A stretch of DNA of 64,000 nucleotides from Minisyncoccota bacterium. GTDB lineage: Bacteria > Patescibacteriota > Minisyncoccia > Phycocordibacterales > Phycocordibacteraceae. The stretch spans positions 208,351 through 272,350 of the forward strand of contig DASWXP010000002.1 of the NCBI GenBank assembly GCA_036405415.1, read 5' to 3'. The number at the start of each line of letters is the position of its first letter. The first letter of the stretch is position 1. The translations under genes and the position numbers were made by a program. The notes under the pieces were generated by a model. That model was given only the letters and a program-made list of their open reading frames with translations. It ran no database searches and had not been told where the DNA came from. This document shows, one piece after another, positions 11,983-50,147 of the stretch.

Positions 11983-11984
11983 AC

Positions 11985-15530: not shown

Positions 15531-15536
15531 CGATAT

Positions 15537-16859: not shown

Positions 16860-16860
16860 C

Positions 16861-16888
16861 AAAAAGAGGCCCATATGGGCCTCTTTTT
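16861..16888. terminator. bidirectional rho-independent terminator AAAAAGAGGCCCATATGGGCCTCTTTTT
   Basis: Perfect 9-bp GC-rich stem flanked by A5/T5, between convergent genes. Confidence 0.7.
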
Positions 16889-16904
16889 GTTAGCTCTATG
16901 CTGT

Positions 16905-17531: not shown

Positions 17532-17533
17532 AC

Positions 17534-18007: not shown

Positions 18008-18008
18008 C

Positions 18009-18407: not shown

Positions 18408-18444
18408 AAGATTTAGTTAGATTGAGTAAGAAGAAAGTAGTCGC

Positions 18445-18813: not shown

Positions 18814-18865
18814 ATGTCTCTAGTATACCGCTTCTGGTTCTAGCATAGAGCTATACTTTATTTAT

Positions 18866-19315
18866 ATGAAAATGACCAATATGTATGCTCGGTTCGGACT
18901 CATGATACTCATCTCCTTTGCTGCCATGTACATTTTGATGTACGCCATGGTGAATGTGCTTGGAAATGCGCTTCCGAACTGGAATCAGTTTTATATGGCA
19001 GGACTCATGACTTCCCCGATGATAGTGCTTGAAATGCTCTTCATGGGAACGATGTATGGGAATAAGAAATTGAATATAGGAATTATTGTTGGAGGTTTGG
19101 TTTTGCTTGTTATTTTTTGGATAAGTATTAGGCAGCAAGTCGGTATATCTGATGAGCAATTTCTGAAGTCCATGATTCCGCATCACGCCGGAGCAATCTT
19201 GATGTGCAGTAAGACTAAGCTTCAAGACCCAGAGCTGAAAGCACTCTGTACTGGCATTACATCAGGTCAGCAGGGTGAGATCGAGTTTATGAAATCAAAA
19301 CTAAATGGAATGTAG
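18866..19315 (+). CDS. DUF305 domain membrane protein
   Basis: 'MIPHHAGAILMC' DUF305 motif following three TM helices. Confidence 0.6.
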   Translation: MKMTNMYARFGLMILISFAAMYILMYAMVNVLGNALPNWNQFYMAGLMTSPMIVLEMLFMGTMYGNKKLNIGIIVGGLVLLVIFWISIRQQVGISDEQFLKSMIPHHAGAILMCSKTKLQDPELKALCTGITSGQQGEIEFMKSKLNGM

Positions 19316-19502
19316 GCGGACCTCGTGGCTACAGATTTAAAGCCAACTGCCCTCTGCTAAAATCCTCAACCATACTGAATAAGGTCTTTTGTTAGAGGGG
19401 TTCGAATCTTAACTACTTCGCACGGGATTAGGACTCGAATTTCGAGCTTCAAAATGCCTTTTGTTTATTGACGCGTCTCGAGCGCGATAACCTAGCACGA
19501 GT

Positions 19503-19576
19503 TGGCTGGGAGACTAGGGATCGAACCTAGATTGACGGGACCAAAACCCGGTGTCCTACCATTAGACGATCTCCCA
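19503..19576 (-). tRNA. tRNA-Gln (anticodon UUG)
   Basis: The cloverleaf was folded by hand. Acceptor is TGGGAGA/TCTCCCA, anticodon loop UUUUGGU, T-loop GGTTCGATCCC, with G73 and an encoded CCA. It aligns with E. coli tRNA-Gln. Confidence 0.85.
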
Positions 19577-25365: not shown

Positions 25366-25452
25366 GTTCCCGCCATTGTACGGCAGGACCGCGGCTACGA
25401 AAAGCTGAGGATTTTATATTTTCTTTATCTCCCTTCGGTATGCTTCCCGGGT

Positions 25453-26316
25453 ATGGCGGATATCGAGGAGATCCTGAAGGAGGAATACGAGGAACGCGGC
25501 ATCGGATCGCTCCTTGAGATACCGCAACCTCCGGAAAAGCTCTGGCTGCGCGGGTCCCTTCCAGGAAGGGACGTGAAGCGGCTTGCGGTAGTGGGATCGA
25601 GGGCGCTCTCTCCGTACGGCGAAGCGGCCTGCCGGTATCTCCTGTCCGGACTCGCCGGCTACCCGATCTCGATTGTCTCGGGGCTCGCGCTCGGCGCTGA
25701 CGCGTGCGCGCACCGCGCCGCGCTCGAAGCGGGACTCCATACCATCGCGATCCCTGGTTCTGGGCTCGCGAACAAGACTATCGCGCCGCGCACGAACTAC
25801 GCGCTTGCGATGTACATACTCGCGTCAGGCGGCGCGCTGCTTGCGGAGCATCCGCCGGAAGAAGGAGCGCGCCCGTACTATTTCCCTTCACGCAACCGCA
25901 TCATGGTAGGACTCGCAGACGCGGTGCTTGTGATCGAAGCGGCCGAGAAATCGGGCACGCTCATAACGGCGCGCATGGCCGCAGACTATAACCGCGACCT
26001 CCTGTGCATCCCGCACCGCATCCTAGACGAGAACGGGCACGGCAACCACCTCTTCCTGCGGCTGGGTGCGGGTCTCATCACCGAGCCAGAGCATATCCTC
26101 GAAGCACTGGGGATTGCTGCTGAAGAGAAGCAGCAATCGCTTCCGCTCTTGTCTCCTGCCGAAGAACAGCTCTATGACGTGCTCGCTACCCCCATGCCGC
26201 GCAACGAGCTCATCCGCCGCTCGGGACTCCTTCCGGACGAAGCCTTGGTGGCGCTTCTGGCGCTTGATCTCAAGGGTCTGGTGAAAGAAACGTACGGCGC
26301 GTGGCGCAGGATCTAG
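25453..26316 (+). CDS. dprA: DNA processing protein DprA (Smf)
   Basis: 'VVGSRALSPYGEAACRYL...GLALGADACAHRAAL'. Start set at MADIEE; the longer in-frame ORF from a GTG at 25141 overlaps serS and is rejected. Confidence 0.85.
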   Translation: MADIEEILKEEYEERGIGSLLEIPQPPEKLWLRGSLPGRDVKRLAVVGSRALSPYGEAACRYLLSGLAGYPISIVSGLALGADACAHRAALEAGLHTIAIPGSGLANKTIAPRTNYALAMYILASGGALLAEHPPEEGARPYYFPSRNRIMVGLADAVLVIEAAEKSGTLITARMAADYNRDLLCIPHRILDENGHGNHLFLRLGAGLITEPEHILEALGIAAEEKQQSLPLLSPAEEQLYDVLATPMPRNELIRRSGLLPDEALVALLALDLKGLVKETYGAWRRI

Positions 26317-28784: not shown

Positions 28785-28991
28785 CGCGTTACGCGCAGAG
28801 TCGTTCAGGAGCTGCAGGAACACCGGCAGGTTGCCGGGGCTTGAGCTCGAGCGGATGCTGGCAGCGGTCGGTATTGATTGAACGACCGCGCCTATGAAAA
28901 ACCCTGCAGAAAGGACACGGGGATACAAAAGGCAGTACCATCTACTTGCTCCCTCCGTTGCGTGAATCTCATCAAACAGTATCCTTACGTT

Positions 28992-30584
28992 ATGACCACC
29001 GTCAAGGAAATCCTAGCGCAGACGAGCGGTCTCTCGCCTGAGGACGAGGCGCTCGTAGAAAAGGCATACGCTTTCGCGGAGAACGCGCACAAGGACCACA
29101 AGCGGTATTCAGGAGAGCCCTACTTCACGCACCCGGCCGCAGTAGCCAAGCAGCTTGCCGAGTTCGGCATGGACGCGCCCACCATCGCCGCAGCCTTGCT
29201 CCATGACTCTATCGAAGACGTAGGCGTCACCCCGGAAGAGATAGACCGGGAATTCGGCCCCGAGGTCCTTTTCCTCGTCGAAGGCGTCACCAAGCTCGGA
29301 AAGCATAAGTATCAGGGCGGAGAGCGCCACGCAGAGAGCCTGAGACGCCTTCTGGTTGCGACCGCGAGCGACGTGCGCGTGCTCATCGTGAAGCTCGCGG
29401 ACCGGCATCACAACATGACCACCCTCGTGCATGTGCCTGAGGAGAAGCGGCGACGCATCGCGCTCGAGACCTTGGAGATCTACGCGCCGATCGCAGACCG
29501 GCTTGGAATGGGAGCGCTCAAGAAGGAGCTCGAGGACCTCGCGTTCCCTGCCATAGACCCGGACGCGCACCAGCACGCGATCGAAGTCCGCAAGCTCAAG
29601 AATAAGGAGACCGAGCAGGGACTCGCGCGCGCCCAGAAGAACCTCCAGCACGCGCTCGTGAAGAAGGGACTCACCGACTTTTCCACGTCTGTCCGTATGA
29701 AGGGGCTTTGGAGCCTCCACCAGAAACTGAAGCGCAAAGGCGACGACATCACGCGCATCTATGACATCGCGGCGCTCCGCGTAATCGTACCGACCGTAGA
29801 CGACTGCTACACCGCACTTGGCGTGATTCATGCGCTCTGGAAGCCGCTTCCGGGCGAGTTCAAGGACTACATCTCCTTCCCGAAACCGAACGGCTACCAG
29901 TCCCTCCATACCACGGTCATGACAGGCGAGGCTGGAATCGTTGAGATGCAGGTACGCACCCGCGACATGCATCAGCGCGCGCAGTTCGGTATCGCGTCCC
30001 ATATGTCATACAAGTCGCTCGAGAAGAGCGCCGGCAAGCGCGCCTTCCAGCGGCTCTCCTTCCCGTGGATCAGGGATCTCGTGCCGGCGCTCCTCAACAT
30101 GAAGAAGATCGCTCCACAGAACCATGACGCGCCTGACGTGCCGCGCTGGCTCACGGACCTCAAGGAGGCGCATGCCGAAGCGACCGAGACCGACGAGTTC
30201 GTAGAGGGGCTCAAGTCAGACTTCTTCTCGCACCGCATCTTCGTGTTCACCCCGAACGGCGACGTCATCGACCTCCCTACCGAATCCACGCCGATAGATT
30301 TCGCCTATGCCATCCACAGCGACCTCGGAGACCATATGCAGGGCGCGAAAGTGAACGGGAAGCTGGTATCCTTCGACACGAAGCTCAGGAACGGCGACGT
30401 CATCGAGGTATTGAAATCGAAGTCTGCGCACCCAACCGCAAAATGGCTCGACTACGCGCGCACGAGCATGGCACGCCGCCATATCCGGAACGCGCTCGAC
30501 ATCGAGGCCCGCGGCAGGCCGCATGCGGAGAGCGTAAAGCCAAAGCGCTCCCCGAAGGAGCGCAAGCAGAAGAAGGTGAAGTAG
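28992..30584 (+). CDS. rel: bifunctional (p)ppGpp synthetase/hydrolase, RelA/SpoT family (HD + RelA_SpoT + TGS)
   Basis: HD motif 'HDSIEDV', 'RHHNMTTL', synthetase region 'YDIAALRVIV', and a C-terminal TGS domain. Confidence 0.85.
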   Translation: MTTVKEILAQTSGLSPEDEALVEKAYAFAENAHKDHKRYSGEPYFTHPAAVAKQLAEFGMDAPTIAAALLHDSIEDVGVTPEEIDREFGPEVLFLVEGVTKLGKHKYQGGERHAESLRRLLVATASDVRVLIVKLADRHHNMTTLVHVPEEKRRRIALETLEIYAPIADRLGMGALKKELEDLAFPAIDPDAHQHAIEVRKLKNKETEQGLARAQKNLQHALVKKGLTDFSTSVRMKGLWSLHQKLKRKGDDITRIYDIAALRVIVPTVDDCYTALGVIHALWKPLPGEFKDYISFPKPNGYQSLHTTVMTGEAGIVEMQVRTRDMHQRAQFGIASHMSYKSLEKSAGKRAFQRLSFPWIRDLVPALLNMKKIAPQNHDAPDVPRWLTDLKEAHAEATETDEFVEGLKSDFFSHRIFVFTPNGDVIDLPTESTPIDFAYAIHSDLGDHMQGAKVNGKLVSFDTKLRNGDVIEVLKSKSAHPTAKWLDYARTSMARRHIRNALDIEARGRPHAESVKPKRSPKERKQKKVK

Positions 30585-32811: not shown

Positions 32812-33663
32812 TTGCCCACCATGAGTACTTCCGGGGACCCTTCCCCCATCATCTGCATCGCAGGCCCTACCGCGTCCGGGAAATCAAGGCGCGCCGTAGA
32901 GCTCGCCAAGGAACGGGACGGCGAGGTCATCTCCGTGGACTCGCGCCAGGTGTACCGGATGCTCGATATCGGTACGGAGAAGACCAGTAAAGAAGAGATG
33001 GATGGCATCCCGCACCACCTGATCGACATCATTGACCCCAAGGACACCTACAGCGCCGGTGATTTCGTGCGAGACGCGTCTCGGCTGATCGAGGAGATCC
33101 GGTCCCGCGGCAAGCAGCCAATCCTCGCTGGCGGAACCCATTTCTATTTCGATGCGCTCATATACGGACTGCCGGAAACCGCTCCTCAGAACCCAACATT
33201 GCGCGATGCGCTCGAGACGCGCTCCTGCGACTCGCTTATGGACGAACTGAGGACGCGAGATCCGCGACGCGCAGAACGTATCGATCCGAACAATAAGCGC
33301 CGCCTCATGCGCGCGCTTGAAATACTCGAGTCCCACGGACATGTCCCTGAACGCACTCTAGGGACGCCGAAGTATGAGATTGAATGGGTGCTCCTGAATC
33401 CTGAACGCGACGAGCTTAGAGCGCGCATTGCTGCGCGCCTCGAGAAGGCGCTTGAGAGCGGACTCATCGAGGAGACGAGACGCGTACGCGCATATGTAGG
33501 CGATACGCGCCTCAACGAGCTCGGGCTCGAATACAGGATCGTAGGCGAATACCTGCGCGAGGAACGCAGCGAGGAATCCCTTTTACCGTCCCTTTCTACC
33601 AAGGTCTGGCACTATGCGAGGCATCAGAAGGCATGGCTTCGTAAGATAGCCCAGGATTCCTAG
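32812..33663 (+). CDS. miaA: tRNA dimethylallyltransferase
   Basis: P-loop 'IAGPTASGKS' and 'DSRQVYR..DIGT'. Confidence 0.85.
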   Translation: MPTMSTSGDPSPIICIAGPTASGKSRRAVELAKERDGEVISVDSRQVYRMLDIGTEKTSKEEMDGIPHHLIDIIDPKDTYSAGDFVRDASRLIEEIRSRGKQPILAGGTHFYFDALIYGLPETAPQNPTLRDALETRSCDSLMDELRTRDPRRAERIDPNNKRRLMRALEILESHGHVPERTLGTPKYEIEWVLLNPERDELRARIAARLEKALESGLIEETRRVRAYVGDTRLNELGLEYRIVGEYLREERSEESLLPSLSTKVWHYARHQKAWLRKIAQDS

Positions 33664-34559
33664 CGTCCGCTTGGCGACCAGTGGACCGGATCGTCACGCA
33701 GCGTATTCCTAAAATTCCAGCGGTGGCCGTTATTCTTAAGCCAGTTGTACGTGCGCGTGTTACAGCTGCTGTTTCCGTTGCTGCACCCGACGTCAATATC
33801 TACCGCTTCGCCCGAATTATGGTTCGAGCCGTTGCCGCCGAGCGAGCATGGGCGCGCGACCGCGCCGATCTCGCTGCGCCTATTCCAGAGAGATACCTGG
33901 CTCGCTTCGGATCGGTAGGCACTCGTTACCTTGAGATCTATATTGTCTCTGGCTGCCGCTGCGCGCATCGCCATGAAATTGGTGACGGTCGCCTGCGTAG
34001 CTTTACCTGATCCACCAGCCACTGCAGCTGCCGGGAACGCAACCATAGTGGACTCATCCGCCGCAGGGCAGTTCGCGCCGGTACCCGTGACTACACGGTC
34101 ATCGACCTCGGCTCCCGGCGTCGCCGTTATGTTTCCGTCGAACAACGACTTGTTGTCCTTTGACTCGATGCATGAGGGACCTGACCCGTTAAGCAGGATC
34201 GTATTCCACGGACCGAACTGTCCTCCGTACAGCGTCTTCATCACGAAGTCCACAATGAGCCACGCGGAGAGGGTTATGAGAAGGCCCACGACGGCATTGA
34301 TGAGCATCTTGTTCGCGGTGCCGCGGTTCTCAGGATTCGTCGGCGACAGAACGTACAGGATGCCTCCCCACACGAGGATGATGGTCGCGAAGATGATCGC
34401 GATACCGATCGCGAAGTTCACTAAATTCTGAATGATGGCGAGCACCCCGCCGAATCCGCACGGACACTGGCGGCAGGCTTCCGGAACGATAGGACCGAAC
34501 TGCGCTTGCGCAGAAAGCGGCAGCAAGGCAAGAGCGATGAATAGCGCGGCGCGGGTCAT
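33660..34559 (-). CDS. secreted pilin-like (VirB2/TrbC-type 2-TM) N-terminal module fused to peptidase M15 (VanY/D-Ala-D-Ala carboxypeptidase-like) domain
   Basis: Signal peptide plus a two-TM module 'VLSPTNPENRGTANKMLINAVVGLLITLSAWLIVDFVMK'. The C-terminus has 'SAYRS', 'HNSGEAVDIDV' and 'DDPVHW', which form the M15 zinc-ligand pattern. Confidence 0.6.
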   Translation of the reverse strand: MTRAALFIALALLPLSAQAQFGPIVPEACRQCPCGFGGVLAIIQNLVNFAIGIAIIFATIILVWGGILYVLSPTNPENRGTANKMLINAVVGLLITLSAWLIVDFVMKTLYGGQFGPWNTILLNGSGPSCIESKDNKSLFDGNITATPGAEVDDRVVTGTGANCPAADESTMVAFPAAAVAGGSGKATQATVTNFMAMRAAAARDNIDLKVTSAYRSEASQVSLWNRRSEIGAVARPCSLGGNGSNHNSGEAVDIDVGCSNGNSSCNTRTYNWLKNNGHRWNFRNTLRDDPVHWSPSGR

Positions 34560-35107
34560 GGAAGTTCTACGGCGCCTTCACAGGAAGCGAACTCAAGATC
34601 GTAGTCAGGAGGATAGAGATCGTTCACGCCGGGACCTGCCACGACATTCGCATCGAGCTTGCAAAGGTCTGAGCGGGATATCTGCAATCTTTCAAGGAGC
34701 GCTTGTGCTGCCGCTTCGCGCGTCTCGCCGAGAGGTTCCGCCAGCAGCGTCACGAGGAACTCTCCTTGGGGCGAGTCCTGATCCGGCTCGATATACGTGA
34801 TGAGATAGGAATCCATCGGGCTTCCGGCAACCTGATACTCCTGCTGGCTTACCCAATCAGGCTGCGGAACGGCACTGAAGTCAGGGACACTGACCGTAGT
34901 GCCGTCGCTAAGCGCAAGGCTCCGCTCGCCACTCGCGATAGTGCCTGAGCCTATGCCGAGAAAAGGATTCTGACCTCCCGGCTGCTGAGACACTTCAGGA
35001 GACGCGTCTTTTGGAACGAGCACAACGTAGAGAATGCCGACCGCAAGCACCAGCAGGAGCAGGCCAGCTAGTATCATCCCTATTCCGAAGATTCTTGAGG
35101 AGTGCAT
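34556..35107 (-). CDS. membrane-anchored hypothetical protein between the two PG-hydrolase fusions
   Basis: N-terminal TM helix 'IFGIGMILAGLLLLVLAVGILYVVL'. Start set at MHSSRIF to avoid overlapping the upstream gene. Confidence 0.4.
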   Translation of the reverse strand: MHSSRIFGIGMILAGLLLLVLAVGILYVVLVPKDASPEVSQQPGGQNPFLGIGSGTIASGERSLALSDGTTVSVPDFSAVPQPDWVSQQEYQVAGSPMDSYLITYIEPDQDSPQGEFLVTLLAEPLGETREAAAQALLERLQISRSDLCKLDANVVAGPGVNDLYPPDYDLEFASCEGAVELP

Positions 35108-35126
35108 AGACGTATCGTACCACTTG

Positions 35127-36155
35127 CTATCGACCGAACTGGCAGCTCGGGTGGTCGACGCGCCGAGCATTCGGCACGCCGCAGCGCTGCGCGGAGCAGG
35201 CCCAGGCGCTCAGGTTAGAGGTATACAGGTTCTGCGCGGCGCGCGTATTCTTCGCCGGATTGAGCGCCGCGGCCGTACAACGATCGAAAAGTTCCTGATT
35301 CGTCACCCGCTGACTGCACCAGCCGACGCGACCCTGGTTGCGGATAGCATCTCCCGAGCACGGTCCGCTGAACGCAGCGCGGCAATCCATGCCCCAGCCA
35401 GCAGCCTCGGTGTCCGTAGTGGTGAGATTGATCTGCCACAGGCCCCAAGAATAGCTCGGTCCCCTGCCGCTATTGAGCTTGTCGGAACCGCTCGGCACCG
35501 AACGGCCGCCGCTCTCTTTGTTGCAGACGCGGGAGGCGTGCTCTCCGAGCGCTTCGAAGCGGGTGCCGCGCAGGCTCGCGAGGCTGCAAGGATGATTATC
35601 AATGACCGGCACGGAGCACTGGCCGCCGCCGGCCCTGCCGCCGCCCGGAAGCTGCATCGGGGTCCCCACGATGGTTCCCGAGAAGAGCGGCGTCGAGCTG
35701 GCTGCTACGACGCAGTAATCTCCGCCGGTTATGATCTCGTTCCATGGACCGAACCCGCCATTATCGTTGTAAAGAAGCTTCATCACGAAATCGACGATGA
35801 GCCACGCGGAGAGGATTATGAGGAGCCCTATCACGGCATTCGTGAGCACCTTCTTCGCCTGGGAATGATTCTCCGGATTCGTCGGCGTAAGGATCCAGAG
35901 CATGCCTGCGAACGCGATGATGAGCACGAAGATAACTATGCCAAAAGATATCGCGGCATTCATGCCGTTCTGAATGAGCTGCAGGAATCCTGCGAATCCG
36001 AGCGGAGCGCCTACGGGACAATCAGGATCAAGCTCATGCGCTTCAGGCACGAGCTGCCATTCCGGATCGAAGAGCGGCAGATTGGACTGCGCGCTTGCGA
36101 GCGCAGGTACGAGTAGAAGGAACGCGATAAGGAACGGAGCCCAGAGCCGCTTCAT
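35127..36155 (-). CDS. secreted pilin-like N-terminal module fused to lytic transglycosylase (SLT/GH23-like) domain
   Basis: The N-terminal module is nearly identical to that of 33660-34559 ('ILTPTNPENHSQAKKVLTNAVIGLLIILSAWLIVDFVMK'). The C-terminus has 'NKESGG...SYSWGLWQIN...AAQNLY', which is the ES...GLMQ...Y pattern of SLT. Confidence 0.6.
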   Translation of the reverse strand: MKRLWAPFLIAFLLLVPALASAQSNLPLFDPEWQLVPEAHELDPDCPVGAPLGFAGFLQLIQNGMNAAISFGIVIFVLIIAFAGMLWILTPTNPENHSQAKKVLTNAVIGLLIILSAWLIVDFVMKLLYNDNGGFGPWNEIITGGDYCVVAASSTPLFSGTIVGTPMQLPGGGRAGGGQCSVPVIDNHPCSLASLRGTRFEALGEHASRVCNKESGGRSVPSGSDKLNSGRGPSYSWGLWQINLTTTDTEAAGWGMDCRAAFSGPCSGDAIRNQGRVGWCSQRVTNQELFDRCTAAALNPAKNTRAAQNLYTSNLSAWACSAQRCGVPNARRVDHPSCQFGR

Positions 36156-44057: not shown

Positions 44058-44132
44058 GGGCCAGATGGCGAAGTGGTAACGCTGCGGATTGCAAACCCGC
44101 TATGCACGGGTTCGATTCCCGTTCTGGCCTCC
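44058..44132 (+). tRNA. tRNA-Cys (anticodon GCA)
   Basis: Acceptor GGCCAGA/TCTGGCC, anticodon loop UUGCAAA, T-loop GGTTCGATTCC, encoded CCA. Confidence 0.8.
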
Positions 44133-44136
44133 ATAC

Positions 44137-44219
44137 TGCCGGGGTGATGGAATGGTAGACATAGGGGTCTTAAACACCCCAGGCAGCAATGCCATGCGGG
44201 TTCGAGTCCCGCCCCCGGT
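44137..44219 (+). tRNA. tRNA-Leu (anticodon UAA, long variable arm)
   Basis: Anticodon stem GGGGU/ACCCC with loop CUUAAAC, long variable arm, T-loop GGTTCGAGTCC. Confidence 0.8.
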
Positions 44220-44273
44220 ACCCTGGGAATTGGTATTGAATTCAGGGCGCTTCTTATGTAGAATGCGCCTGTA

Positions 44274-44346
44274 TCCGCCTATAGCTCAGCTGGTAGAGCA
44301 CTCGCCTCTTAAGCGATTGGTCCTTGGTTCGAGTCCAAGTGGGCGG
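44274..44346 (+). tRNA. tRNA-Lys (anticodon CUU)
   Basis: Acceptor CCGCCUA/UGGGCGG, D-arm GCTCAGCTGGTAGAGC, anticodon loop CUCUUAA, T-loop GGTTCGAGTCC. Confidence 0.75.
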
Positions 44347-44357
44347 ACTAGAGAAAA

Positions 44358-44382
44358 GGAGAGGTCTTCGGATCTCTCTTTT
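44358..44382 (+). terminator. UUCG-tetraloop hairpin + T5 inside the tRNA array
   Basis: GAGAGGTC-TTCG-GATCTCTC followed by TTTTT, lying between tRNA-Lys and tRNA-Leu(UAG). Confidence 0.5.
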
Positions 44383-44400
44383 TCTGTTAGGATACGGAGA

Positions 44401-44481
44401 CGCTGGAGTGGCGAAATGGTATACGCGCCTGCCTTAGGAGCAGGTCCCTTCGGGGGTGGAGGTTCGAGTCCTCTCTCCAGC
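44401..44481 (+). tRNA. tRNA-Leu (anticodon UAG, long variable arm)
   Basis: Acceptor GCTGGAG/CTCCAGC, anticodon stem CCTGC/GCAGG with loop CUUAGGA, long variable arm. Confidence 0.8.
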
Positions 44482-44579
44482 ACACACTTGACTTTTTGTA
44501 CAAAATAGTGTTATTTTAGTCCCAGATTCCGTGATCCTTGAGAACACGGTGCAACCACACTCAGCCAAAGGAGCTGGAC

Positions 44580-45683
44580 ATGAATCAGTGCAAGTCAGAG
44601 CACGTGGCGGTGAATACCGCCCGTTACAAGAGGTGGGTCACCGGCATCCTCATGCCCGGCGCCCTACTCGCCCTGACCATGCTGGTTCAGGGCATCACGC
44701 CATGGTGGCAAGTCCCTCTCTGGGAGTACGCCCTGCTATTCCTGCTCGGTTCGTACTACGTCACCTCCCTGCAAAGGGTCGAGACCGGTATGATCGCCGG
44801 CATCACTCTTCTCGAAGAGCCGGTGCTCGAGGTGACCGCAGGTTGGTACTTCGTACCGCGGTTCCTCATGGAGATCGATTGGATGCCGGCACACACGCTC
44901 CAGGACCAGTTCCCGGGAAACCCGGAGCAGATCTCGAAGCGTGACGACAATCTCGGACTGCTTCCGAACGAGTTCCGGCCTATCCGCGCGATGACCGCTC
45001 CCGGCAAACCCGAAGACGGGGACGATCCGCTCAACACGCGGCTCGCGCTCGAGGTCATCTTCGCCGTTCGGTGGAAGGTCAAGCCTGGCGGCTTCTTCGA
45101 TGTGTATGTGAAGATCCCCGGCCGACGCTGGGAAGACAAGGTCGTGAACATCCGGCAACATATGCGGGATACCGGCGAGACGGAGCTGATCGAGGAAATC
45201 TCTGAGCGGTCGCCCTTCCGGGTGAACGCTGATATGCACCTTCTCAACGACCAGCTGAAGGAAGAACTTCAGACGGCAGTTGGCGACTGGGGCATCGAGA
45301 TCGAAGAGGCGCGCATGCAAGCGCCCGACTTCCCGCACAGCGTGAACACCTCGCTCGCCGACATCTCTACCGCGCTCGCGCAGCGTAAGGTGACCGAGAC
45401 AAAAGCTCATGCTGAGAAGCAGCGGCAGATACTGGTCAGCGAAGGCGAGTCGGCGGCGATCATCAACCTCGCCGAAGCGCGAAAGCGCGAAAGCATCGCC
45501 CGAGGCGAAGGAAGGAAGGAAGAAGCTGAACTAACGGGCATCAGCGGCGAGCAGCTCTATGCGGGCGAAATCGCCATTAAGACCGTAGGCGAGGGAGACC
45601 TCATCCTCGGCGAACCCGGCATCGCCCAAGCGTTGGGCATCGGAGGGTTCGTGCTCAAGCGTGCGAAGGATGCCGCGCCATGA
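44580..45683 (+). CDS. SPFH/band-7 (stomatin/HflK-like) membrane protein
   Basis: N-terminal TM helix, an SPFH core, and a C-terminal 'AEKQRQILVSEGESAAIINLAEARKRESIARGEGRKEEAE' coiled coil typical of Band 7. Confidence 0.8.
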   Translation: MNQCKSEHVAVNTARYKRWVTGILMPGALLALTMLVQGITPWWQVPLWEYALLFLLGSYYVTSLQRVETGMIAGITLLEEPVLEVTAGWYFVPRFLMEIDWMPAHTLQDQFPGNPEQISKRDDNLGLLPNEFRPIRAMTAPGKPEDGDDPLNTRLALEVIFAVRWKVKPGGFFDVYVKIPGRRWEDKVVNIRQHMRDTGETELIEEISERSPFRVNADMHLLNDQLKEELQTAVGDWGIEIEEARMQAPDFPHSVNTSLADISTALAQRKVTETKAHAEKQRQILVSEGESAAIINLAEARKRESIARGEGRKEEAELTGISGEQLYAGEIAIKTVGEGDLILGEPGIAQALGIGGFVLKRAKDAAP

Positions 45684-46339
45684 ACTGGCAGGGCATCCTC
45701 GTGTCGATCGTCTTCATTGCGATCGGCCTCGCGCTCATCCTCACCCGATTCAAGATGGGAAATCCCTTCCATAAGGACGCCCCTGACTCGGATCATGAGA
45801 CTGAGAAGCATGGACATGGCCACGGCAACCCGAGCGACTCGCATGGCAAAAAGTCACCCGGCCATCATGACGAACATAAGCACCACTCGGCACACGGTCA
45901 CGATGATCATCACGGCGGGAGCAATCCCTTCGTTCTGATGTTCATCGGCGCCGGCATCCTCGTGGTAATCGTCGTAATCGGCTGGTGGCTTTCCACCCGC
46001 GTGGCGCCTCCCAACGGGAAGCCTATCGCGGAACGAATCGCCATGGCGCCTCAAGGAACCCTTTCCGGGAACCAGGTGGCGCTGACTTCGTCGGTTCGCT
46101 GCGTGAGCATGGACGTCGTCGCTCGGGTGATTCCGCCCGGAGACGAGGTCGTGGTCGCGATTCCTGACGGCAGGAGCCTGGAGTTCGAGCCAGGCACTTC
46201 CGAAGGGACGCTGCGCGTCTGCGACGCGTTCAACCCTTCGGTCTGCGCAAACGGCCAGGGACTCAAGGGCGGCATACGGGCGGCCCGGATGGAGAACATC
46301 TCTTCCGATCCCGTCCATCTCCGCTGCAGGCTCTACTAA
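45680..46339 (+). CDS. NfeD-like membrane protein with His-rich loop, partner of the SPFH protein
   Basis: Its start overlaps the SPFH stop. A TM helix, a His-rich loop 'HETEKHGHGHGNPSDSHGKKSPGHHDEHKHHSAHGHDDHHG', a second TM helix, then a ~110-aa C-terminal domain. Confidence 0.5.
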   Translation: MNWQGILVSIVFIAIGLALILTRFKMGNPFHKDAPDSDHETEKHGHGHGNPSDSHGKKSPGHHDEHKHHSAHGHDDHHGGSNPFVLMFIGAGILVVIVVIGWWLSTRVAPPNGKPIAERIAMAPQGTLSGNQVALTSSVRCVSMDVVARVIPPGDEVVVAIPDGRSLEFEPGTSEGTLRVCDAFNPSVCANGQGLKGGIRAARMENISSDPVHLRCRLY

Positions 46340-46360
46340 GCACCGTGTTCGAACTACGCA

Positions 46361-46392
46361 AAGCCCGCGCCTTTCCCGGCGCGGGCTTTTTC
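46361..46392 (+). terminator. hairpin terminator AAGCCCGCGCC-TTTCC-GGCGCGGGCTTTTT
   Basis: 9-bp GC stem plus a T-run after the NfeD-like gene. Confidence 0.55.
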
Positions 46393-46399
46393 TTTGCCC

Positions 46400-46648
46400 T
46401 TAGTTCGCCCCTACGGTTGCCTTGAGGATGGAGACGATGGCGTTGGCCCCGAAGATGATGACGAGGCCGATGATGCCCCAGATCATGTGCTGCTGTCCGG
46501 TCCTGCGCTTTTCCTCGTCCTCCGCGCCCGCGATGAACTCCACGATACCCCACATGAAGACCACGAATGCGCCGAGCGCGAGCAGAGTGATAATCGGTGT
46601 GAGGATGGCGTCCTGCACCTTGGTGATGAATTGCTGGAAGGGGCTCAT
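46400..46648 (-). CDS. VirB2/TrbC-like pilin-family small membrane protein (paralog 1)
   Basis: 82 aa with TM1, a charged loop 'AGAEDEEKRRTGQQ', then TM2 'MIWGIIGLVIIFGANAIV'. Confidence 0.5.
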   Translation of the reverse strand: MSPFQQFITKVQDAILTPIITLLALGAFVVFMWGIVEFIAGAEDEEKRRTGQQHMIWGIIGLVIIFGANAIVSILKATVGAN

Positions 46649-46662
46649 GAGGAAAGTATAGC

Positions 46663-46690
46663 AAAAGCCCGCGCGTGCGCGCGGGCTTTT
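46663..46690. terminator. bidirectional hairpin AAAAGCCCGCGCG-TGCG-CGCGGGCTTTT between pilin paralogs
   Basis: Perfect 9-bp GC stem with A/T flanks. Confidence 0.45.
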
Positions 46691-46707
46691 GTGCTGCCGA
46701 TGGAGGA

Positions 46708-47073
46708 TTAGTTAACGATGACCGACGGGGTCACGTCGCCTACCGGAGGCGCGGTGTTGGTGGTCTGGAAGGTGCCGCGAAGGATGTTCACGAGACCCCA
46801 GACGGATACCATCACGAAGAAGCCGATGATGCCCCAGAGCATGAGGCTCTTGCCGTTCTCGCGCTTCTCTTCGTCCGCACCGCCCATAATGAAGTACTGG
46901 AACACGCCCCAGATGAACACGATGAAAGCGATAGCGAACACGAGCGGCACGAGCACGTTGTTGATGAGGCTGATGATGCCCTGGCCGATAGAGCCAGCGT
47001 TCGTTGCCGTGACCTGAGCGGACACGAAGAACGGGAACGCGAGAGCGGCAGCAAGATAACCGAGTTTCTTCAT
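46708..47073 (-). CDS. VirB2/TrbC-like pilin-family small membrane protein (paralog 2)
   Basis: Signal peptide, TM1, 'GGADEEKRENGK', then TM2 'LMLWGIIGFFVMVSVWGLVNIL'. Confidence 0.55.
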   Translation of the reverse strand: MKKLGYLAAALAFPFFVSAQVTATNAGSIGQGIISLINNVLVPLVFAIAFIVFIWGVFQYFIMGGADEEKRENGKSLMLWGIIGFFVMVSVWGLVNILRGTFQTTNTAPPVGDVTPSVIVN

Positions 47074-47165
47074 AGGTAATGATTACGTGTAAACCGTATT
47101 TCTTAAGGATAGACCGGAATGATGAAGCGTCAATAGAGCCCTGAAATCCGTGTGGACAGCGGCTT

Positions 47166-47582
47166 CTAGAGGAATGTGTCGTCGTCGTTGAGGTTTGGGG
47201 TCTGGGAACCACCGGTGCCCGGCGTGAATCCTGGAAGGTTCGGGACCTGGTTATCAAGCCTGAACGTTCCCCTCACGATGTTCACGAGGCCCCAGACAGA
47301 TACCATCACGAAGAAGCCGACCACGCCCCAGATCGCCAGCTGCTTTCCCTGCGCGCGCTTCTCTTCGTCTGCGCCTCCGGCGATGAAGTAGAGGAAGAGG
47401 CCCCAGATGAACGCGAGGAACGCGAGCGCGAACACCAGCGGGATCAGCACGCCGCCTATGAAGCGCGTGATGCTCTGGAGCATGGACGGGATGGTGTTCC
47501 CGGATATCTCGTACTGCGCGTACGCGGACGAGGCTGACAGCAGGAACAGGGCGAACGAGAAGAATGCGGTTCGGAGAATCAT
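47166..47582 (-). CDS. VirB2/TrbC-like pilin-family small membrane protein (paralog 3)
   Basis: Signal peptide, TM1, 'GGADEEKRAQGK', then TM2 'LAIWGVVGFFVMVSVWGLVNIV'; near-identical core to paralog 2. Confidence 0.55.
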   Translation of the reverse strand: MILRTAFFSFALFLLSASSAYAQYEISGNTIPSMLQSITRFIGGVLIPLVFALAFLAFIWGLFLYFIAGGADEEKRAQGKQLAIWGVVGFFVMVSVWGLVNIVRGTFRLDNQVPNLPGFTPGTGGSQTPNLNDDDTFL

Positions 47583-47621
47583 ATATATTTAGGATACCAA
47601 TATCTGTGCCTTGAAACAGGG

Positions 47622-47927
47622 TTATGCACTGAGGGCCCCCGGGATAAGGGTAAGAAAGAGCCGGACGATGCCCCAGACCGAGAACATCACCACCAGACCA
47701 ATGATGCCCCACAGCATGAGCGCCTTCCCTTTTTGGCGGTTCTCTTCTCCGCCCATGAAAAGGAACCGCGCCATGCCGATGAAGAAGAACAGCAGCGCGA
47801 GCGCGTACAGGAGCGGCATGACTGCCGTATTCACGATGCTCACGATGCTGGCCGTGAACTCCTTGAAGCTCGCGGCACGCGCGAGAGCCGGCGTGAGCAT
47901 TAGGAAGGCTGCGACAAGGTACCGCAT
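47622..47927 (-). CDS. VirB2/TrbC-like pilin-family small membrane protein (paralog 4)
   Basis: 'FMGGEENRQKGKALMLWGIIGLVVMFSVWGIV'. Start set at MRYLVAAF, 2 nt after the upstream stop. Confidence 0.5.
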   Translation of the reverse strand: MRYLVAAFLMLTPALARAASFKEFTASIVSIVNTAVMPLLYALALLFFFIGMARFLFMGGEENRQKGKALMLWGIIGLVVMFSVWGIVRLFLTLIPGALSA

Positions 47928-47929
47928 GA

Positions 47930-48310
47930 CTAGCGCAGAGAATTCACCGTACCTTCGATCACGAGCTGGATCGAGGTAGCGCCAAGGAGGATGAGACCGC
48001 CGATAACGGTCCACACCAGCGCGCTCTTAGCGCTCTGAAGCTTCTCGGCATTGCCTCTTGCAACCACGAACAGGAAGCCCACGTACACGAGCATCATGAT
48101 GAGGACTATGGTACCGATCTGTACGACGCCGCCGAGGATCGCCCGGAGAAACTCAGGGAGGGTTGAGACGCCGTTAAGCGGATTCACGAGCCCTCCTCCG
48201 GAGGTCGAGGTGCCGGTATTCGTTATAACCTCGGCGTGTGCCGCAAACGGCGCATACAGGAGCGTGAGGAGCACGGTATGCGAAAGAGAGCGAGTGAGTA
48301 TCCGGTTCAT
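47930..48310 (-). CDS. VirB2/TrbC-like pilin-family small membrane protein (paralog 5, divergent)
   Basis: Signal peptide, TM1 'ILGGVVQIGTIVLIMMLVYVGFLFVV', loop 'ARGNAEKLQSAKS', TM2 'ALVWTVIGGLILLGATSI'. Confidence 0.45.
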   Translation of the reverse strand: MNRILTRSLSHTVLLTLLYAPFAAHAEVITNTGTSTSGGGLVNPLNGVSTLPEFLRAILGGVVQIGTIVLIMMLVYVGFLFVVARGNAEKLQSAKSALVWTVIGGLILLGATSIQLVIEGTVNSLR

Positions 48311-48311
48311 G

Positions 48312-49613
48312 CTAGTAGGACGCGTTAATGGACTGGCTTGCGGTTGAGATCGCGTTATTCACCGATTCCCTGCCGCTCGCCACGTTACGAATCATGGTAG
48401 CAAAGATCGTGTCTGTGTCCGTCGGCGCTGGGGAGAGCCAGCCGCGCGCAACGAGCGCCTCAGGATAGAAGACCGGCTCGTAGAGGTCATCCTTCGACGG
48501 TGCAAGTGCTGCACGGACTGCCGGCGCCATGCCGAGCTTGCGCGCAAACGCCGCAACACTCTTGGCGTCCGAGAAAGAGCGCGCCACGCGCACCGCGCCC
48601 TCGGCGTTCGCGCTCGTGCGCGGCACCGCGAACGCGTACGCCTTCCCGTACGTGACGCGCGTCTGGCTCGTTCCCGGGGACGGGACCGGCGCCATATCGA
48701 AGTCGAGGTTCGGATTCGCAGCCGCAAGCGCCTTGCGCTCGGACGCGAACCCGAGGTACAGCGCGAGATCCCCCGCTACGAACGCGTCCCTGCTCTGCGG
48801 CAAGGAGCGATTCCAGGAGTACACCGTCTTCGTTGGGTTCGCGAACTCGGTATAGAAATTCAGCGCGCTCTCGGTAGGACGGATGCCGTAGTTCGTGCCC
48901 TTCATGGTGTCGAGATCCGATTCGATGCCGTTGGTAGTTCTCGTAGTGATCTGGTATCCCGCCTGCATGAATAGCAGCGAGATGATGGCACGCGCATGGT
49001 CGATATTCTCGTACGTACCGAGCGCGATCAGGCTTCGCGACACCACCTGACCTTCGCCTTCTCGGTTGACCGTTCCGGCAAGTCCCGAGACCGCCTCCCA
49101 GGTCGACGGCGGCTGCGTCACGCCTGCCGATGCGAGAATCGGGCGGTTGTAATAGAGGATGAGCGGATCGACCAGGAACGGGATGCCGTACGTGCCTCCG
49201 GTGGTAAGGAAGAGCTCGCCTATAGGGAGGAAGCTGCTCCTGAAGTCTCGTTCGGAGATGGTGCTCGACGGGATCATGCCGAGCTTCGATTGCGCGGACG
49301 CGAGGTCTTCCTGGGAGATGACGATGAGATCGGGACCGCGTCCGGATGCGATCGCTTCGGCAAGGTCCTGGTCGAAGGTCTCCTGCGGACGCTGGGTGTA
49401 GGAGACTTTCCCGTATTCTTGGTGCGCCTGCTTGTACTCGCCAAGCGCCATGTTCATCTCGTTTGCAGGCAAGGTTCCCCAGATGGTAACGGTTCCCACC
49501 TGCGGCACTCCCGAGGAGAATCCCTGGAAGCTCGCGAACAGCGCGATACCGACGAGCGCGATGACGCCGAATATCGCCATCACGATGATCTGGAACGGAC
49601 GGAGGTTTTGCAT
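48312..49613 (-). CDS. extracellular solute-binding protein (ABC transporter SBP family 1, MalE-like), membrane-anchored
   Basis: N-terminal TM anchor then a ~400-aa periplasmic-binding-protein-like domain ('TIWGTLPANEMN', 'YGIPFLVDPLILYYN'). Confidence 0.65.
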   Translation of the reverse strand: MQNLRPFQIIVMAIFGVIALVGIALFASFQGFSSGVPQVGTVTIWGTLPANEMNMALGEYKQAHQEYGKVSYTQRPQETFDQDLAEAIASGRGPDLIVISQEDLASAQSKLGMIPSSTISERDFRSSFLPIGELFLTTGGTYGIPFLVDPLILYYNRPILASAGVTQPPSTWEAVSGLAGTVNREGEGQVVSRSLIALGTYENIDHARAIISLLFMQAGYQITTRTTNGIESDLDTMKGTNYGIRPTESALNFYTEFANPTKTVYSWNRSLPQSRDAFVAGDLALYLGFASERKALAAANPNLDFDMAPVPSPGTSQTRVTYGKAYAFAVPRTSANAEGAVRVARSFSDAKSVAAFARKLGMAPAVRAALAPSKDDLYEPVFYPEALVARGWLSPAPTDTDTIFATMIRNVASGRESVNNAISTASQSINASY

Positions 49614-49616
49614 AAG

Positions 49617-50147
49617 CTACGGCGCAGTGAATACGATCGAGTAATGGTGCGGACCCGCCCTGAAATCCTTCACCTTATGGAAACCAGCACTTATGAAGAG
49701 CTCTTCGGCGACATGTTCGGTGACTACGCGGTGCGGAAGCGGGCCCATGCCCCCGTACGCGCCTGCCCAGTCAATGACGAGGAGCCGGCCTCCGGTCTTG
49801 AGGATGCGCTTGATCTCGGCTACGGCCCCCTCTCTGTGATCAAGCTGAAAGAGCGTGTTCGAAAGGATAACGGCGTCGAGCGACGCGTCGCGCAGCTTCG
49901 TGCCGCCGAGCTTCTCGAAGTTGCCCCATATAGTCTCGACATTGCGCAGGCCCTTCCCGGCTGCGTGATCCTTCACGTGCTTCAGGATATCCTCCTGTAT
50001 GTCTACCGCGTACACGCGGCCCTCAGGACCGACGATCGCCGCAGCGCTCGCCGCGTAGTGCCCTGAGCCGACGCCCAGGTCCCCAACCTTCATGCCTTCG
50101 CGGAGCCCGAGCTGGAGCACGTTGCTCTGCGGATTGCTGAAATTCAT
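49617..50147 (-). CDS. class I SAM-dependent methyltransferase
   Basis: Motif I 'VGDLGVGSGHYA' and motif II 'LDAVILSN'. Start set at MNFSNPQS. Confidence 0.75.
   Translation of the reverse strand: MNFSNPQSNVLQLGLREGMKVGDLGVGSGHYAASAAAIVGPEGRVYAVDIQEDILKHVKDHAAGKGLRNVETIWGNFEKLGGTKLRDASLDAVILSNTLFQLDHREGAVAEIKRILKTGGRLLVIDWAGAYGGMGPLPHRVVTEHVAEELFISAGFHKVKDFRAGPHHYSIVFTAP

Follow-up and report, generated by a model that had tools for sequence, protein, structure and literature searches.

Tandem arrays of 2 to 11 VirB2-like pilin genes have been described in Patescibacteria (441 arrays in 383 assemblies, published in 2025), in which the average mutual identity of the pilins is ca. 25% (PMC12102498). 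Relaxases are missing from most of the type IV secretion systems (T4SS) of these bacteria (PMC12102498). In Southlakia epibionticum, a 6-pilin array located inside the T4SS cluster is essential (PMC12102498, PMC10633639, PMC12857230), and T4SS pilins were in the top five by expression level of the signal-peptide genes in Paceibacteria co-cultures (PMC10936435). A filament has been seen in no Patescibacterium and has been called a possibility (PMC12857230). An earlier note on the DNA studied here had regarded pilin arrays as typical of CPR bacteria, and their function as unresolved, and the literature on Patescibacteria says the same on both points (PMC12102498, PMC12857230, PMC11665869).

We analyzed one such array in a “Candidatus Paceibacterota” MAG, within a window of 64 kb (the whole stretch of DNA that was analyzed, part of a 622-kb contig). 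It fits the published definition, i.e., 2 to 11 pilins of low identity in tandem (or with one gene between) in a Patescibacteria genome (PMC12102498). Five consecutive genes on the minus strand, coding for proteins of 82 to 138 aa and transcribed in the order A-B-C-D-E, were found exactly where the earlier note had placed them (46400 to 48310) and, as it had also stated, downstream of a gene for a solute-binding protein (SBP):

46400..46648, minus strand: paralog E, 82 aa; hairpin only, without signal peptide
46708..47073, minus strand: paralog D, 121 aa; signal peptide (VSA↓Q), hairpin and short Pro-rich tail
47166..47582, minus strand: paralog C, 138 aa; signal peptide, hairpin and variable Pro-rich C-terminal tail
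47622..47927, minus strand: paralog B, 101 aa; signal peptide and hairpin, tail absent
47930..48310, minus strand: paralog A, 126 aa; signal peptide, Gly/Thr/Ser-rich linker, “GLVNPL” motif and helical hairpin
48312..49613, minus strand: orphan, membrane-anchored SBP of the MalE/oligosaccharide type, 433 aa; PF01547 SBP_bac_1, 57.6 bits
49617..50147, minus strand: SAM-dependent methyltransferase, 176 aa; opens the closely spaced block

The start of B was taken as the ATG of “MRYLVAAF,” with which the public gene calls agree; a 130-aa version of B starting at a GTG, present in the ORF listing, overlaps A and is not used in those calls. The ORF of E cannot be extended upstream. The methyltransferase stop is 3 nt ahead of the SBP start, the ATG of A is 1 nt past the SBP stop, and the ATG of B is 2 nt past the stop of A; the SBP and the array adjoin with gene spacing of 1 to 5 nt, both here and in the annotated related loci. 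Across species, the SBP gene is followed by the pilin array in all 74 informative loci (those with enough downstream sequence), the methyltransferase immediately precedes the SBP, in the same orientation, in 72 of the 74, and the order A-B-C-D-E is fixed in 47 of the 51 five-gene loci. The gene family itself had already been catalogued; what is new is the conserved methyltransferase-SBP-A-B-C-D-E unit, with the same order of the five pilin-like genes behind the SBP across dozens of related species. The context of the array is chromosomal and housekeeping: its GC content (59 to 61%) is that of the surrounding genome, and it is flanked by gyrA and IF-2/ClpB, with the synteny kept across species. 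gyrA is likewise adjacent in 53 of 61 loci and, since synteny is generally high in these small genomes, adjacency alone is weak evidence of function.

Like the S. epibionticum ML1 cluster (SEML1_0006-0019) and the arrays of N. lyticus TM7x, this one consists of tandem, divergent and structurally alike paralogs of Pfam family PF18895, and it shares with the published Patescibacteria arrays (PMC12102498) a monoderm host and the lack of a relaxase. Unlike the T4SS-cluster array of S. epibionticum, it does not adjoin virB4 and is joined to an orphan SBP and a methyltransferase. It is found in Paceibacteria, whereas the published arrays are commonest in Microgenomatia and Saccharimonadia (PMC12102498), and it has five fixed orthologous positions and, inside the array, promoters and terminators that are conserved, features that, together with the SBP link, are unmentioned in PMC12102498.

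All five proteins belong to PF18895 (“Type IV secretion system pilin”). Their scores (A, 32.9; B, 38.2; C, 46.6; D, 46.7; and E, 47.2 bits, with E values from 7e-8 to 2e-12) are all above the gathering cutoff of 26.6 bits, which excludes chance. The same family, which has 13,293 cluster representatives at an E value of ≤1e-3, is precomputed on the public gene calls, and NCBI names the proteins “pilin” (the exact protein of D is “pilin [Candidatus Paceibacterota bacterium]”). The earlier note had called them VirB2/TrbC-like and proposed a check against the Pfam TrbC/VirB2 profile. Membership in the T4SS pilin family holds, but the VirB2/TrbC likeness is weakly supported. Against PF04956 (cutoff, 27.9 bits), A, C, and E scored 19.8, 17.1, and 23.1 bits, and B and D had no match. 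When the pilin HMM profile was compared with all PDB sequences, no VirB2, TraA, or other pilin was retrieved (the best E value, 0.24, is noise). Foldseek with the D model gave nothing significant (best E value, 0.9), a helical hairpin being too generic to discriminate. The probability by hhalign was 0.2% against a single VirB2 sequence and 7.4% against a 20-sequence VirB2 profile (E value, 0.0048; 80 co-linear columns), which is not significant. Without a pilin match in the PDB and with hhalign values of this kind, we do not claim proven homology to true VirB2, which the sequences suggest weakly. The best NCBIfam match for all five was NF045849 (Mbov_0395 pilin-like conjugal transfer protein), yet at 22.7 to 38.6 bits, below its curated cutoff of 40.

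The resemblance to VirB2 of A. tumefaciens, TrbC of RP4, and TraA of F lies in the size (ca. 70 to 120 aa), the Sec signal peptide with its A-x-A↓Q context, the two hydrophobic helices with a short loop, and a full-length co-linear alignment. In contrast, similarity to them at the sequence or profile level is not significant, the host is monoderm, the loop between helices is acidic or mixed (EEK), unlike the basic one (“GRAS”) of the VirB2 sequence used for comparison, and VirB5, a cyclase or acetylase partner, and an adjacent T4SS are all lacking. Known pili bind lipid. Judged by inspection, the leaders follow the usual Sec pattern (AHA↓E, ARA↓A, AYA↓Q, and VSA↓Q). Type IV pilins, in which a short basic leader (class III signal peptide) ends in G and the hydrophobic N terminus has Glu at +5, were considered and rejected, with no G↓F..E motif seen by inspection in the five sequences.

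Each protein is a helical hairpin made up of two hydrophobic helices and a short charged loop, preceded by a Sec-type signal peptide in A to D and without it in E. The conserved core that the earlier note had recognized, i.e., a helix, the charged loop (GGADEEKR..GK), and a second helix (WGIIGFFVMVSVWG), could be aligned in all five, clearly in B, C, and D, partially in E, and weakly in A. The AF2 model of D (pLDDT 75.9), with helices at residues 3-17, 27-63, and 68-101, predicts a signal helix and then the two-helix hairpin. Length variation is restricted to the N-terminal linker of A and the C-terminal tail of C. The N-terminal part of A is type specific (median, 69 aa; up to 268), and nothing in the array varies more than the tail of C (median, 38 aa; range, 5 to 123), e.g., a Cys-rich tail in the 226-aa protein of locus L008. 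Position-E orthologs have 80 to 85 aa and likewise lack a signal peptide. Two more pilin-domain genes are found 11 kb from the array, one coding for a fusion to a VanY peptidoglycan peptidase and the other for a 342-aa fusion. Both carry C-terminal domains of the extracellular type, which suggests that the C terminus is outside, and the topology of the hairpin is probably with both the N terminus and the C terminus out. The C-terminal domain of the 342-aa fusion had no sequence match in the PDB; an “ES...GLWQI” motif, recognized by eye, is all that brings a lytic transglycosylase to mind.

According to the earlier note, strong hairpin terminators separated the genes. We found only two strong hairpins, after D and after E, along with several predicted promoter elements:

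47591..47599, minus strand: predicted extended −10 element before C (TGgTATCCT), 8 nt upstream of its ATG
47106..47133, minus strand: predicted sigma-70-type promoter before D (TTGACG-N16-TATCCT), leader of ca. 25 to 30 nt
46662..46691, minus strand: strong GC-rich hairpin after D (13 bp, terminator scan), terminator or attenuator
46655..46663, minus strand: predicted extended −10 element before E (TGcTATACT), abutting the hairpin and 6 nt upstream of the ATG of E
46360..46389, no strand assigned: hairpin terminator after E (scan), common to E (minus strand) and the convergent gene at 45680-46339 (plus strand)

In 47 related loci, the mean folding energy of the 50 nt past the stop was −24.8 kcal/mol for D and −20.8 for E, versus −8.6, −5.8, and −8.1 for A, B, and C; the B-C and C-D spacers have no hairpin, and SBP-A and A-B are only 1 to 2 nt apart. 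The post-D hairpin is kept in 98% of 47 loci, and the one after E in 86% of 44 loci. In the post-D hairpin, 8 of 9 consensus pairs are maintained by at least one species through two-sided changes. Promoters and leaderless transcripts were predicted here from consensus matches backed by conservation. The D promoter was the sole promoter-like site in a scan of positions 46200 to 49800; its sequence occurs once in the 64-kb window (0.03 matches expected), and its two hexamers hardly vary in the C-D spacer among ca. 30 aligned species. In the relatives, this spacer also has a T(T/G)TCC(A/C)CA box upstream of the D promoter; their TYTCCACA box is not matched exactly anywhere in this window, where the sequence is TGTCCACA. 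A TGnTAnnCT box 6 to 8 nt before the ATG of C is kept in the B-C spacer of ca. 45 related loci, and the arrangement “hairpin-TGC-TATNAT-6..8 nt-ATG” before E in ca. 38, so that the C and E transcripts are predicted to be leaderless. These internal signals (the putative D promoter, the covarying terminator, and the −10 boxes of C and E) are conserved and new for the array.

The reading that we favor, with a probability of roughly 0.55, is that the five gene products are T4SS-type pilin subunits that make up a fixed heteromeric set, with D as the major one, and that this set would work with a VirB4-type system encoded elsewhere in the genome. The five proteins would co-assemble into a single heteromeric structure of the envelope, either a pilus-like filament or its membrane base. 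Side-by-side assembly is suggested by single polypeptides with two to three tandem pilin domains (“polypilins,” with four to six TM helices) that occur in the database in other lineages. The structure would belong to a conjugation-independent secretion system used for life on the host cell. D probably acts as the major subunit, since a conserved sigma-70 promoter of its own, a leader, and a conserved terminator that is strong all serve this gene, and its sequence is the most constrained of the five (58 to 71% identity between genomes; dN and dS both lowest). A and B would be made in fixed proportion to the SBP, from a translationally coupled methyltransferase-SBP-A-B block, and C, with its variable outward tail, and E, without a signal peptide, would use their own predicted leaderless promoters. 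Most plausibly, the SBP would sense or capture a host-derived glycan beside the structure. The cognate secretion ATPase that the earlier note had proposed to look for was not found among the window ORFs. The scan covered every ORF of at least 500 aa and most of those of at least 150 aa, and neither VirB4 nor any other T4SS core gene appeared in the 64 kb, the large ORFs being TopA, RelA/SpoT, ClpB, GyrA, IF-2, an ABC-F-like ATPase, and similar. In five related loci with annotation, VirB4, VirB6, and VirB3 were also absent within ±10 kb of the array. The locus is shared by four relatives, C7867-001, -004, -007, and -008 (our loci L053, L024, L037, and L049), that are VirB4 positive in Table S1 of PMC12102498, and their VirB4 lies elsewhere in the genome.

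The SBP itself is of the sugar type. Its profile matched sugar SBPs in the PDB with E values down to 4e-10, and the top Foldseek matches were SBPs for oligosaccharides, manno-oligosaccharides, and maltodextrin (E value, ca. 1e-16). The AF2 model is of no more than moderate quality (pLDDT 62.7, poor in region 184-271), so that no ligand-level inference was drawn from it. PilW, also among the Foldseek matches, was discarded as an artifact of MBP fusions. In 77 sequences, the N-terminal TM helix is conserved as strongly as the globular part, and conservation runs along one face (F7, Q8, F15, G22, and F26 at ≥95%). No permease or ATPase gene (BPD_transp/ABC_tran) was found within ±10 kb of the SBP in six annotated loci, and the only ABC ATPase of the window (419-1990), a two-domain soluble type, is 46 kb away. 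The methyltransferase matched Methyltransf_31/11/25 and Ubie_methyltran and, in NCBIfam, generic methyltransferases only. SBPs are known as sensors for type IV secretion, the examples being the pheromone-binding proteins PrgZ/TraC, from conjugative plasmids of enterococci, and ChvE-VirA of Agrobacterium. Of these, PrgZ belongs to the peptide-binding OppA family, and ChvE is a periplasmic binder of monosaccharides. The likeness is that of an SBP without transporter genes of its own, tied to a T4SS and reading a signal of the partner cell. Unlike PrgZ and ChvE, the SBP described here is of the MalE/oligosaccharide type, TM anchored, and cotranscribed with pilin-like genes.

These features also fit an alternative in which “pilin” is a misnomer for this clade, and the five two-helix proteins and the TM-anchored SBP form a T4SS-independent membrane complex of ca. 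10 to 11 helices, acting as an uptake port or a signaling device for a host-derived oligosaccharide. The invariable and tight adjacency of SBP and array, the orphan state of the SBP and its one-faced anchor, the absence of T4SS genes nearby, the 1:1 retention of five distinct paralogs across species, the missing signal peptide of E, and the existence of polypilins all speak for such a complex. We nevertheless consider it rather unlikely. The separate strong promoter and terminator of D imply a nonstoichiometric excess, typical of the major subunit of a polymer and not of a 1:1 complex, and the outward tails of C, which vary, and the linkers of A resemble surface-exposed parts. Besides, in Saccharibacteria the T4SS cluster itself contains family members, which are essential, the array has no linked component for energy coupling, and we know of no transporter of such a build.

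The array could instead be a cassette of interchangeable major pilins that diversify to match hosts or evade recognition, as proposed for the tandem virB2 arrays of Bartonella and Anaplasma phagocytophilum, which resemble this one in having several virB2-type genes in a host-dependent bacterium. The earlier note had leaned in this direction (diversification, possibly antigenic or host specific), and array variation has been suggested for Patescibacteria too (PMC12102498). Pairwise identity between paralogs is indeed low (17 to 52%, the maximum being C versus D), in line with the published average; the tail of C and the linker of A differ in length and composition; and copy number varies, with an extra D-like gene in ca. 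9 loci and three copies of C in L058. However, each position has its own ortholog in the other species, with 43 to 74% identity in the A-A, B-B, D-D, and E-E comparisons (43 to 65% for B and 55 to 74% for E). Even A, the most divergent copy (17 to 23% to the other four), is 50 to 55% identical to its position-A orthologs. The order is fixed, the type-specific architectures (signal peptide or none, tail or none) are kept, each gene has distinct conserved expression signals, and no repeats or recombination cassettes were seen. dN/dS was 0.16 to 0.38 (ca. 0.3) for all five, with no pair above 0.9; as dS is near saturation (0.5 to 1.6), only the direction, well below 1, was used. Contrary to the reading as variable antigens, the five paralogs thus appear old, non-interchangeable, and under purifying selection, ancient 1:1 orthologs unlike the case made for Bartonella and Anaplasma, and we regard a variation cassette as improbable.

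The Mbov_0395/MMCAP2_0565 protein of Mycoplasma ICEs (80 aa) is likewise a two-helix protein, from a monoderm MPF-FATA-type system, but it belongs to an ICE, whereas the array does not sit in one and scores below the NF045849 cutoff. A conjugative pilus that belongs to an integrated mobile element and serves DNA transfer, which the PF18895 family name and the subthreshold NF045849 matches might suggest, is hardly credible, since GC content and synteny speak against a mobile-element origin, relaxase, coupling protein, VirB4, and integrase are all absent nearby, most Patescibacteria T4SS have no relaxase (PMC12102498), and the real mobile island of the window (5.6 to 19.5 kb) has no pilin.

The locus brings no new kind of gene. 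In one large clade, however, the array is a stable, internally regulated set of five subunits and not a diversifying cassette, and a binding protein of the sugar type, anchored in the membrane, is encoded with it in every case (74/74 informative loci). The predictions that follow are that D is the major subunit, that the C and E transcripts are leaderless, that the SBP and the pilins are physical partners, and that there is a glycan ligand. A bolder version, to which we give little credence for now, is that the SBP and the five pilin-like proteins are a single pilus or port for sensing or harvesting glycans, built as a fixed heteromeric set and possibly including the methyltransferase. In that case, the T4SS_pilin hairpin may be a general membrane or filament scaffold for the display of extracellular functions, as is suggested by the fusion of a pilin to VanY, by the second long pilin fusion at a distance of 11 kb, and by the two- to three-domain polypilins of other lineages. 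The role of the T4SS and pilin arrays of Patescibacteria has been described as completely unknown, although they are essential in the one species tested; if true, this SBP-pilin machine would be the first concrete handle on that essential system.

Five minus-strand ORFs lie back to back at 46400-48310, as an earlier note on this DNA had claimed, downstream of the solute-binding protein (SBP) gene that it had also named (SBP_bac_1, 48312-49613, minus strand), whose stop codon is 1 nt from the ATG of the first. In transcription order, they are:

48310-47930, minus strand: pilin-like gene A, 126 aa
47927-47622, minus strand: pilin-like gene B, 101 aa, ATG start at 47927
47582-47166, minus strand: pilin-like gene C, 138 aa
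47073-46708, minus strand: pilin-like gene D, 121 aa
46648-46400, minus strand: pilin-like gene E, 82 aa

A mechanical ORF list gave B as a 130-aa version (47622-48014) from a GTG inside A, overlapping it by 85 nt, which explains the size range first reported; public gene calls (four independent contigs with an identical locus) use the 101-aa form, whose ATG at 47927 is the real start. Sequencing runs SRR11449182-88 also contain the locus. The alignment shows a common layout of two hydrophobic helices joined by a short charged loop (GGADEEKR..GK in C and D), and an AF2 model of D (pLDDT 75.9) has a signal helix, a two-helix hairpin and a disordered tail. Classical Sec-type leaders are found on A to D (AHA/E, ARA/A, AYA/Q and VSA/Q); E lacks one, and upstream extension of its ORF is impossible. 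Pairwise identity is 17-23% between A and the other four and is highest between C and D (52%).

All five proteins score above the Pfam curated cut-off of 26.6 bits for PF18895, “Type IV secretion system pilin” (32.9-47.2 bits), and the family claim is borne out at this level. NCBI has a protein identical to D at every residue under the name “MAG TPA: pilin [Candidatus Paceibacterota bacterium]”; its 622-kb contig also encodes the SBP, and the naming as pilins had already been done by NCBI’s pipeline. The family is large: a profile built around D retrieved 13,293 representatives of 50%-identity clusters (E<=1e-3). The description as VirB2/TrbC-like holds as PF18895 membership and not as demonstrated homology to real VirB2, the link to which is weak. 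A Pfam scan gave 17-23 bits for TrbC/VirB2 (PF04956, threshold 27.9), and matches to the Mycoplasma ICE pilin-like family NF045849 were likewise all below cut-off (22.7-38.6 bits versus 40). Nothing specific was found among PDB structures with the D model (signal helix plus hairpin), and the family profile matched no pilin among PDB sequences. We also took the true Agrobacterium tumefaciens VirB2 sequence from PDB entry 8cue, collected its homologs and compared profile with profile. The two are co-linear over 80 columns, from the A-x-A/Q cleavage site through both helices, with a probability of only 7.4%. On these results, A to E were filed under PF18895 and the published Patescibacteria arrays, and not as demonstrated VirB2 homologs.

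With those arrays and the NCBI naming, this type of feature is not new. In a search of 3,035 Patescibacteria genomes by means of PF18895 and PF04956, Quinonero-Coronel et al. 2025 (PMC12102498) counted 441 “VirB2 arrays” in 383 assemblies. The arrays have 2-11 pilin genes, which are on average 25% identical, and the authors suggested versatility towards different hosts; no SBP is mentioned there. A predicted pilin gene series in the T4SS cluster of Southlakia epibionticum is essential (Wang et al. 2023, PMC10633639), and in two Paceibacteria in co-culture with methanogens, T4SS pilins were within the top five most highly expressed signal-peptide genes of both (Kuroda et al. 2024, PMC10936435). 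A 2024 perspective (PMC11665869) calls the T4SS role “completely unknown”, and in a 2025 review (PMC12857230), a pilus is described as an “intriguing possibility” for these monoderms.

Five other genomes, with D orthologs 63-86% identical, share the locus, in the order gyrA, methyltransferase, SBP, five pilins, convergent unknown gene and Band_7 gene (L006, L009 and L011 are further copies of loci L005, L008 and L010). Through an alignment of SBP orthologs, we retrieved one locus each from 80 of 227 confirmed species-representative genomes (SBP identity 38-70%). All are Paceibacterota/Parcubacteria, the more distant ones labelled Adlerbacteria or Nomurabacteria. Wherever the downstream sequence is long enough, home-made HMMs detected a co-oriented pilin array directly 3' of the SBP: 74 loci have 4-7 pilin genes, 3 break off behind the first one and 3 lack downstream DNA. 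The same HMMs gave no further pilin matches in the ±10-kb flanks. A methyltransferase gene lies directly 5' of the SBP in 72 of 74 loci, gyrA lies upstream in 53 of 61, and Band_7 is downstream in 16 of 51; by these adjacency counts, SBP-pilin is the tightest link of the neighbourhood. As a binder, the SBP is distantly related to the MalE/oligosaccharide type, and no permease or ATPase gene was found near it in the annotated loci. Its N-terminal transmembrane helix is conserved as much as the globular part (F7, Q8, F15, G22 and F26 at least 95%), which suggests a retained anchor packing against a membrane partner; the ectodomain would comprise residues ca. 36-433. A membrane complex linked to the SBP and independent of any T4SS is a rival reading that we hold to be unlikely.

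In the window, the gene convergent with E (45680-46339, plus strand) codes for a His-rich two-TM protein of 219 aa (HGHGHG...HHDEHKHH), poorly conserved (30% identity to the closest relative). It is preceded by an SPFH/Band_7 gene (44580-45683, plus strand), and the pair is found 3' of the array in close relatives. Between rbfA/IF-2 and Band_7 there is a tight cluster of four tRNAs (44059-44483, plus strand: Cys-GCA, Leu-TAA, Lys-CTT and Leu-TAG), a spot occupied in relatives by an alanine racemase or LAGLIDADG gene.

The earlier note suggested diversification of the paralogs, possibly antigenic. We compared the pilins of four related genomes and the window all against all. A, B, D and E each match best at their own position in every other genome, with same-position identities of 50-55% (A), 43-65% (B), 58-71% (D) and 55-74% (E), versus 20-45% between different positions; C is the least conserved of the five. 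Against the closest relative (L012), NG86 dN/dS values, read for direction only because dS is close to saturation, were 0.33, 0.28, 0.32, 0.19 and 0.16 for A to E, versus 0.17 for the SBP and 0.07-0.10 for ClpB and IF-2. The median values of the pilins over 46 genome pairs were 0.28-0.38, and no single value reached 0.9. Architectures are also kept by type: A has a long N-terminal linker, B neither tail, C a C-terminal tail that is long and variable (5-123 aa), D a tail of ca. 20 aa and E no signal peptide. The A-B-C-D-E order is kept in 47 of 51 five-gene loci. In some species, a further D-like gene lies between D and E, or C is present three times, and the sets are rearranged in the most distant species. 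Position-specific orthology, dN/dS well below 1 and fixed architectures contradict antigenic diversification of the whole array; only the C tail and the A linker may have a diversifying role, and a variation cassette is improbable.

The genes were also said to be separated by strong hairpin terminators, which is wrong: in the window, strong hairpins follow D and E only. Over the related loci, <=-15 kcal/mol is reached in the 50 nt next to the stop in 98% for D and 86% for E, versus 2-9% for A, B or C. In 8 of the 9 consensus pairs of the D hairpin, compensatory changes preserve the pairing. The sole sigma-70-like site of the region, TTGACG-N16-TATCCT, lies 5' of D; it occurs once in the window (0.03 matches expected) and is near-invariant in an alignment of ca. 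30 species, where a T(T/G)TCC(A/C)CA box accompanies it upstream. This box, ca. 20 nt 5' of the D -35 hexamer in the C-D spacers of related loci (L013-L077), may serve as a regulator site or as a signal for processing. A similar TTCTCCAC stands just ahead of the D-E hairpin in related loci; the window has TGTCCACA before D (47140-47160), and the exact consensus is absent from its 64 kb. The D-E spacer has a conserved layout (hairpin-TGC-TATNAT-6..8 nt-ATG), as does the B-C spacer (TGnTAnnCT-6..8 nt-ATG). These boxes are predicted extended -10 elements, whose placement would make C and E leaderless. The methyltransferase, SBP, A and B genes are spaced by 1-5 nt or overlap. From these signals, we infer a transcription layout of methyltransferase-SBP-A-B, C, D with its terminator and E with its terminator. 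D, with its own predicted promoter and terminator and the highest conservation, is probably the major structural subunit, of which such features are expected.

As to the cognate secretion ATPase that the earlier note wanted found, the window contains no VirB4, and VirD4, VirB6 and relaxase genes were also absent from it, as all four were from ±10 kb of the annotated related loci. Table S1 of PMC12102498 gives four relatives with this module as VirB4-positive Paceibacteria (C7867-004, -001, -007 and -008, our loci L024, L053, L037 and L049), and in that study, pilin genes lay away from virB4 in 813 of 1,948 assemblies. A conjugative pilus of a mobile element, which the T4SS family name might bring to mind, is highly improbable beside a window free of relaxase.

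Our own pilin HMM found two more pilin-domain genes 11 kb from the array, so that the window has seven and not five. They form a second pilin-related cluster (33660-36155, minus strand):

35127-36155, minus strand: pilin fusion, 342 aa, PF18895 domain plus Cys-rich C-terminal domain of ca. 200 aa
34556-35077, minus strand: membrane protein between the two fusions, 173 aa, without known family
33660-34559, minus strand: pilin-VanY fusion, 299 aa, PF18895 domain plus VanY D-Ala-D-Ala carboxypeptidase domain

As a peptidoglycan peptidase has to work on the outer side of the membrane, the VanY fusion supports both a C-terminus-out topology and a cell-wall-related role for the family. The 342-aa fusion has a motif (NKESGG...SWGLWQINL) that is lysozyme- or transglycosylase-like by eye only. 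In other lineages, tandem pilin genes are fused into one protein of 4-6 helices (“polypilins”), since single database polypeptides (P0361, P0362 and P0366, 231-336 aa) hold two or three complete pilin domains in tandem, which argues for paralogs that may work side by side.

Elsewhere in the window, a low-GC island (ca. 5600-19500, 45-48% versus ca. 60%) ending at a tRNA-Gln (19503-19576) resembles a mobile or defence element that has integrated into a CPR genome. Encoded on it are a CBASS-like set (E2-like, 8993-9847; oligonucleotide cyclase, 9678-10592; SAVED-HNH effector, 10602-11882), a LexA/S24 repressor, a type II DNA methyltransferase, a small-terminase-like HTH protein, a LOOT RNA (RF03000, 14956-15079, 78.7 bits) and a large serine recombinase (15537-16859). 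Beside topA are genes for DprA (natural-competence DNA processing; 25141-26316, plus strand) and a RelA/SpoT-type (p)ppGpp enzyme (28878-30584, plus strand), which bear on the DNA-uptake lifestyle discussed for these bacteria.

Altogether, we give a probability of about 0.55 to the reading that A to E would be the subunits of a fixed, heteromeric T4SS-type pilin set, D being the major subunit, and would be made together with a membrane-anchored glycan-type binding protein to interact with a host. To the known type of array, the conserved operon architecture adds something useful and testable.
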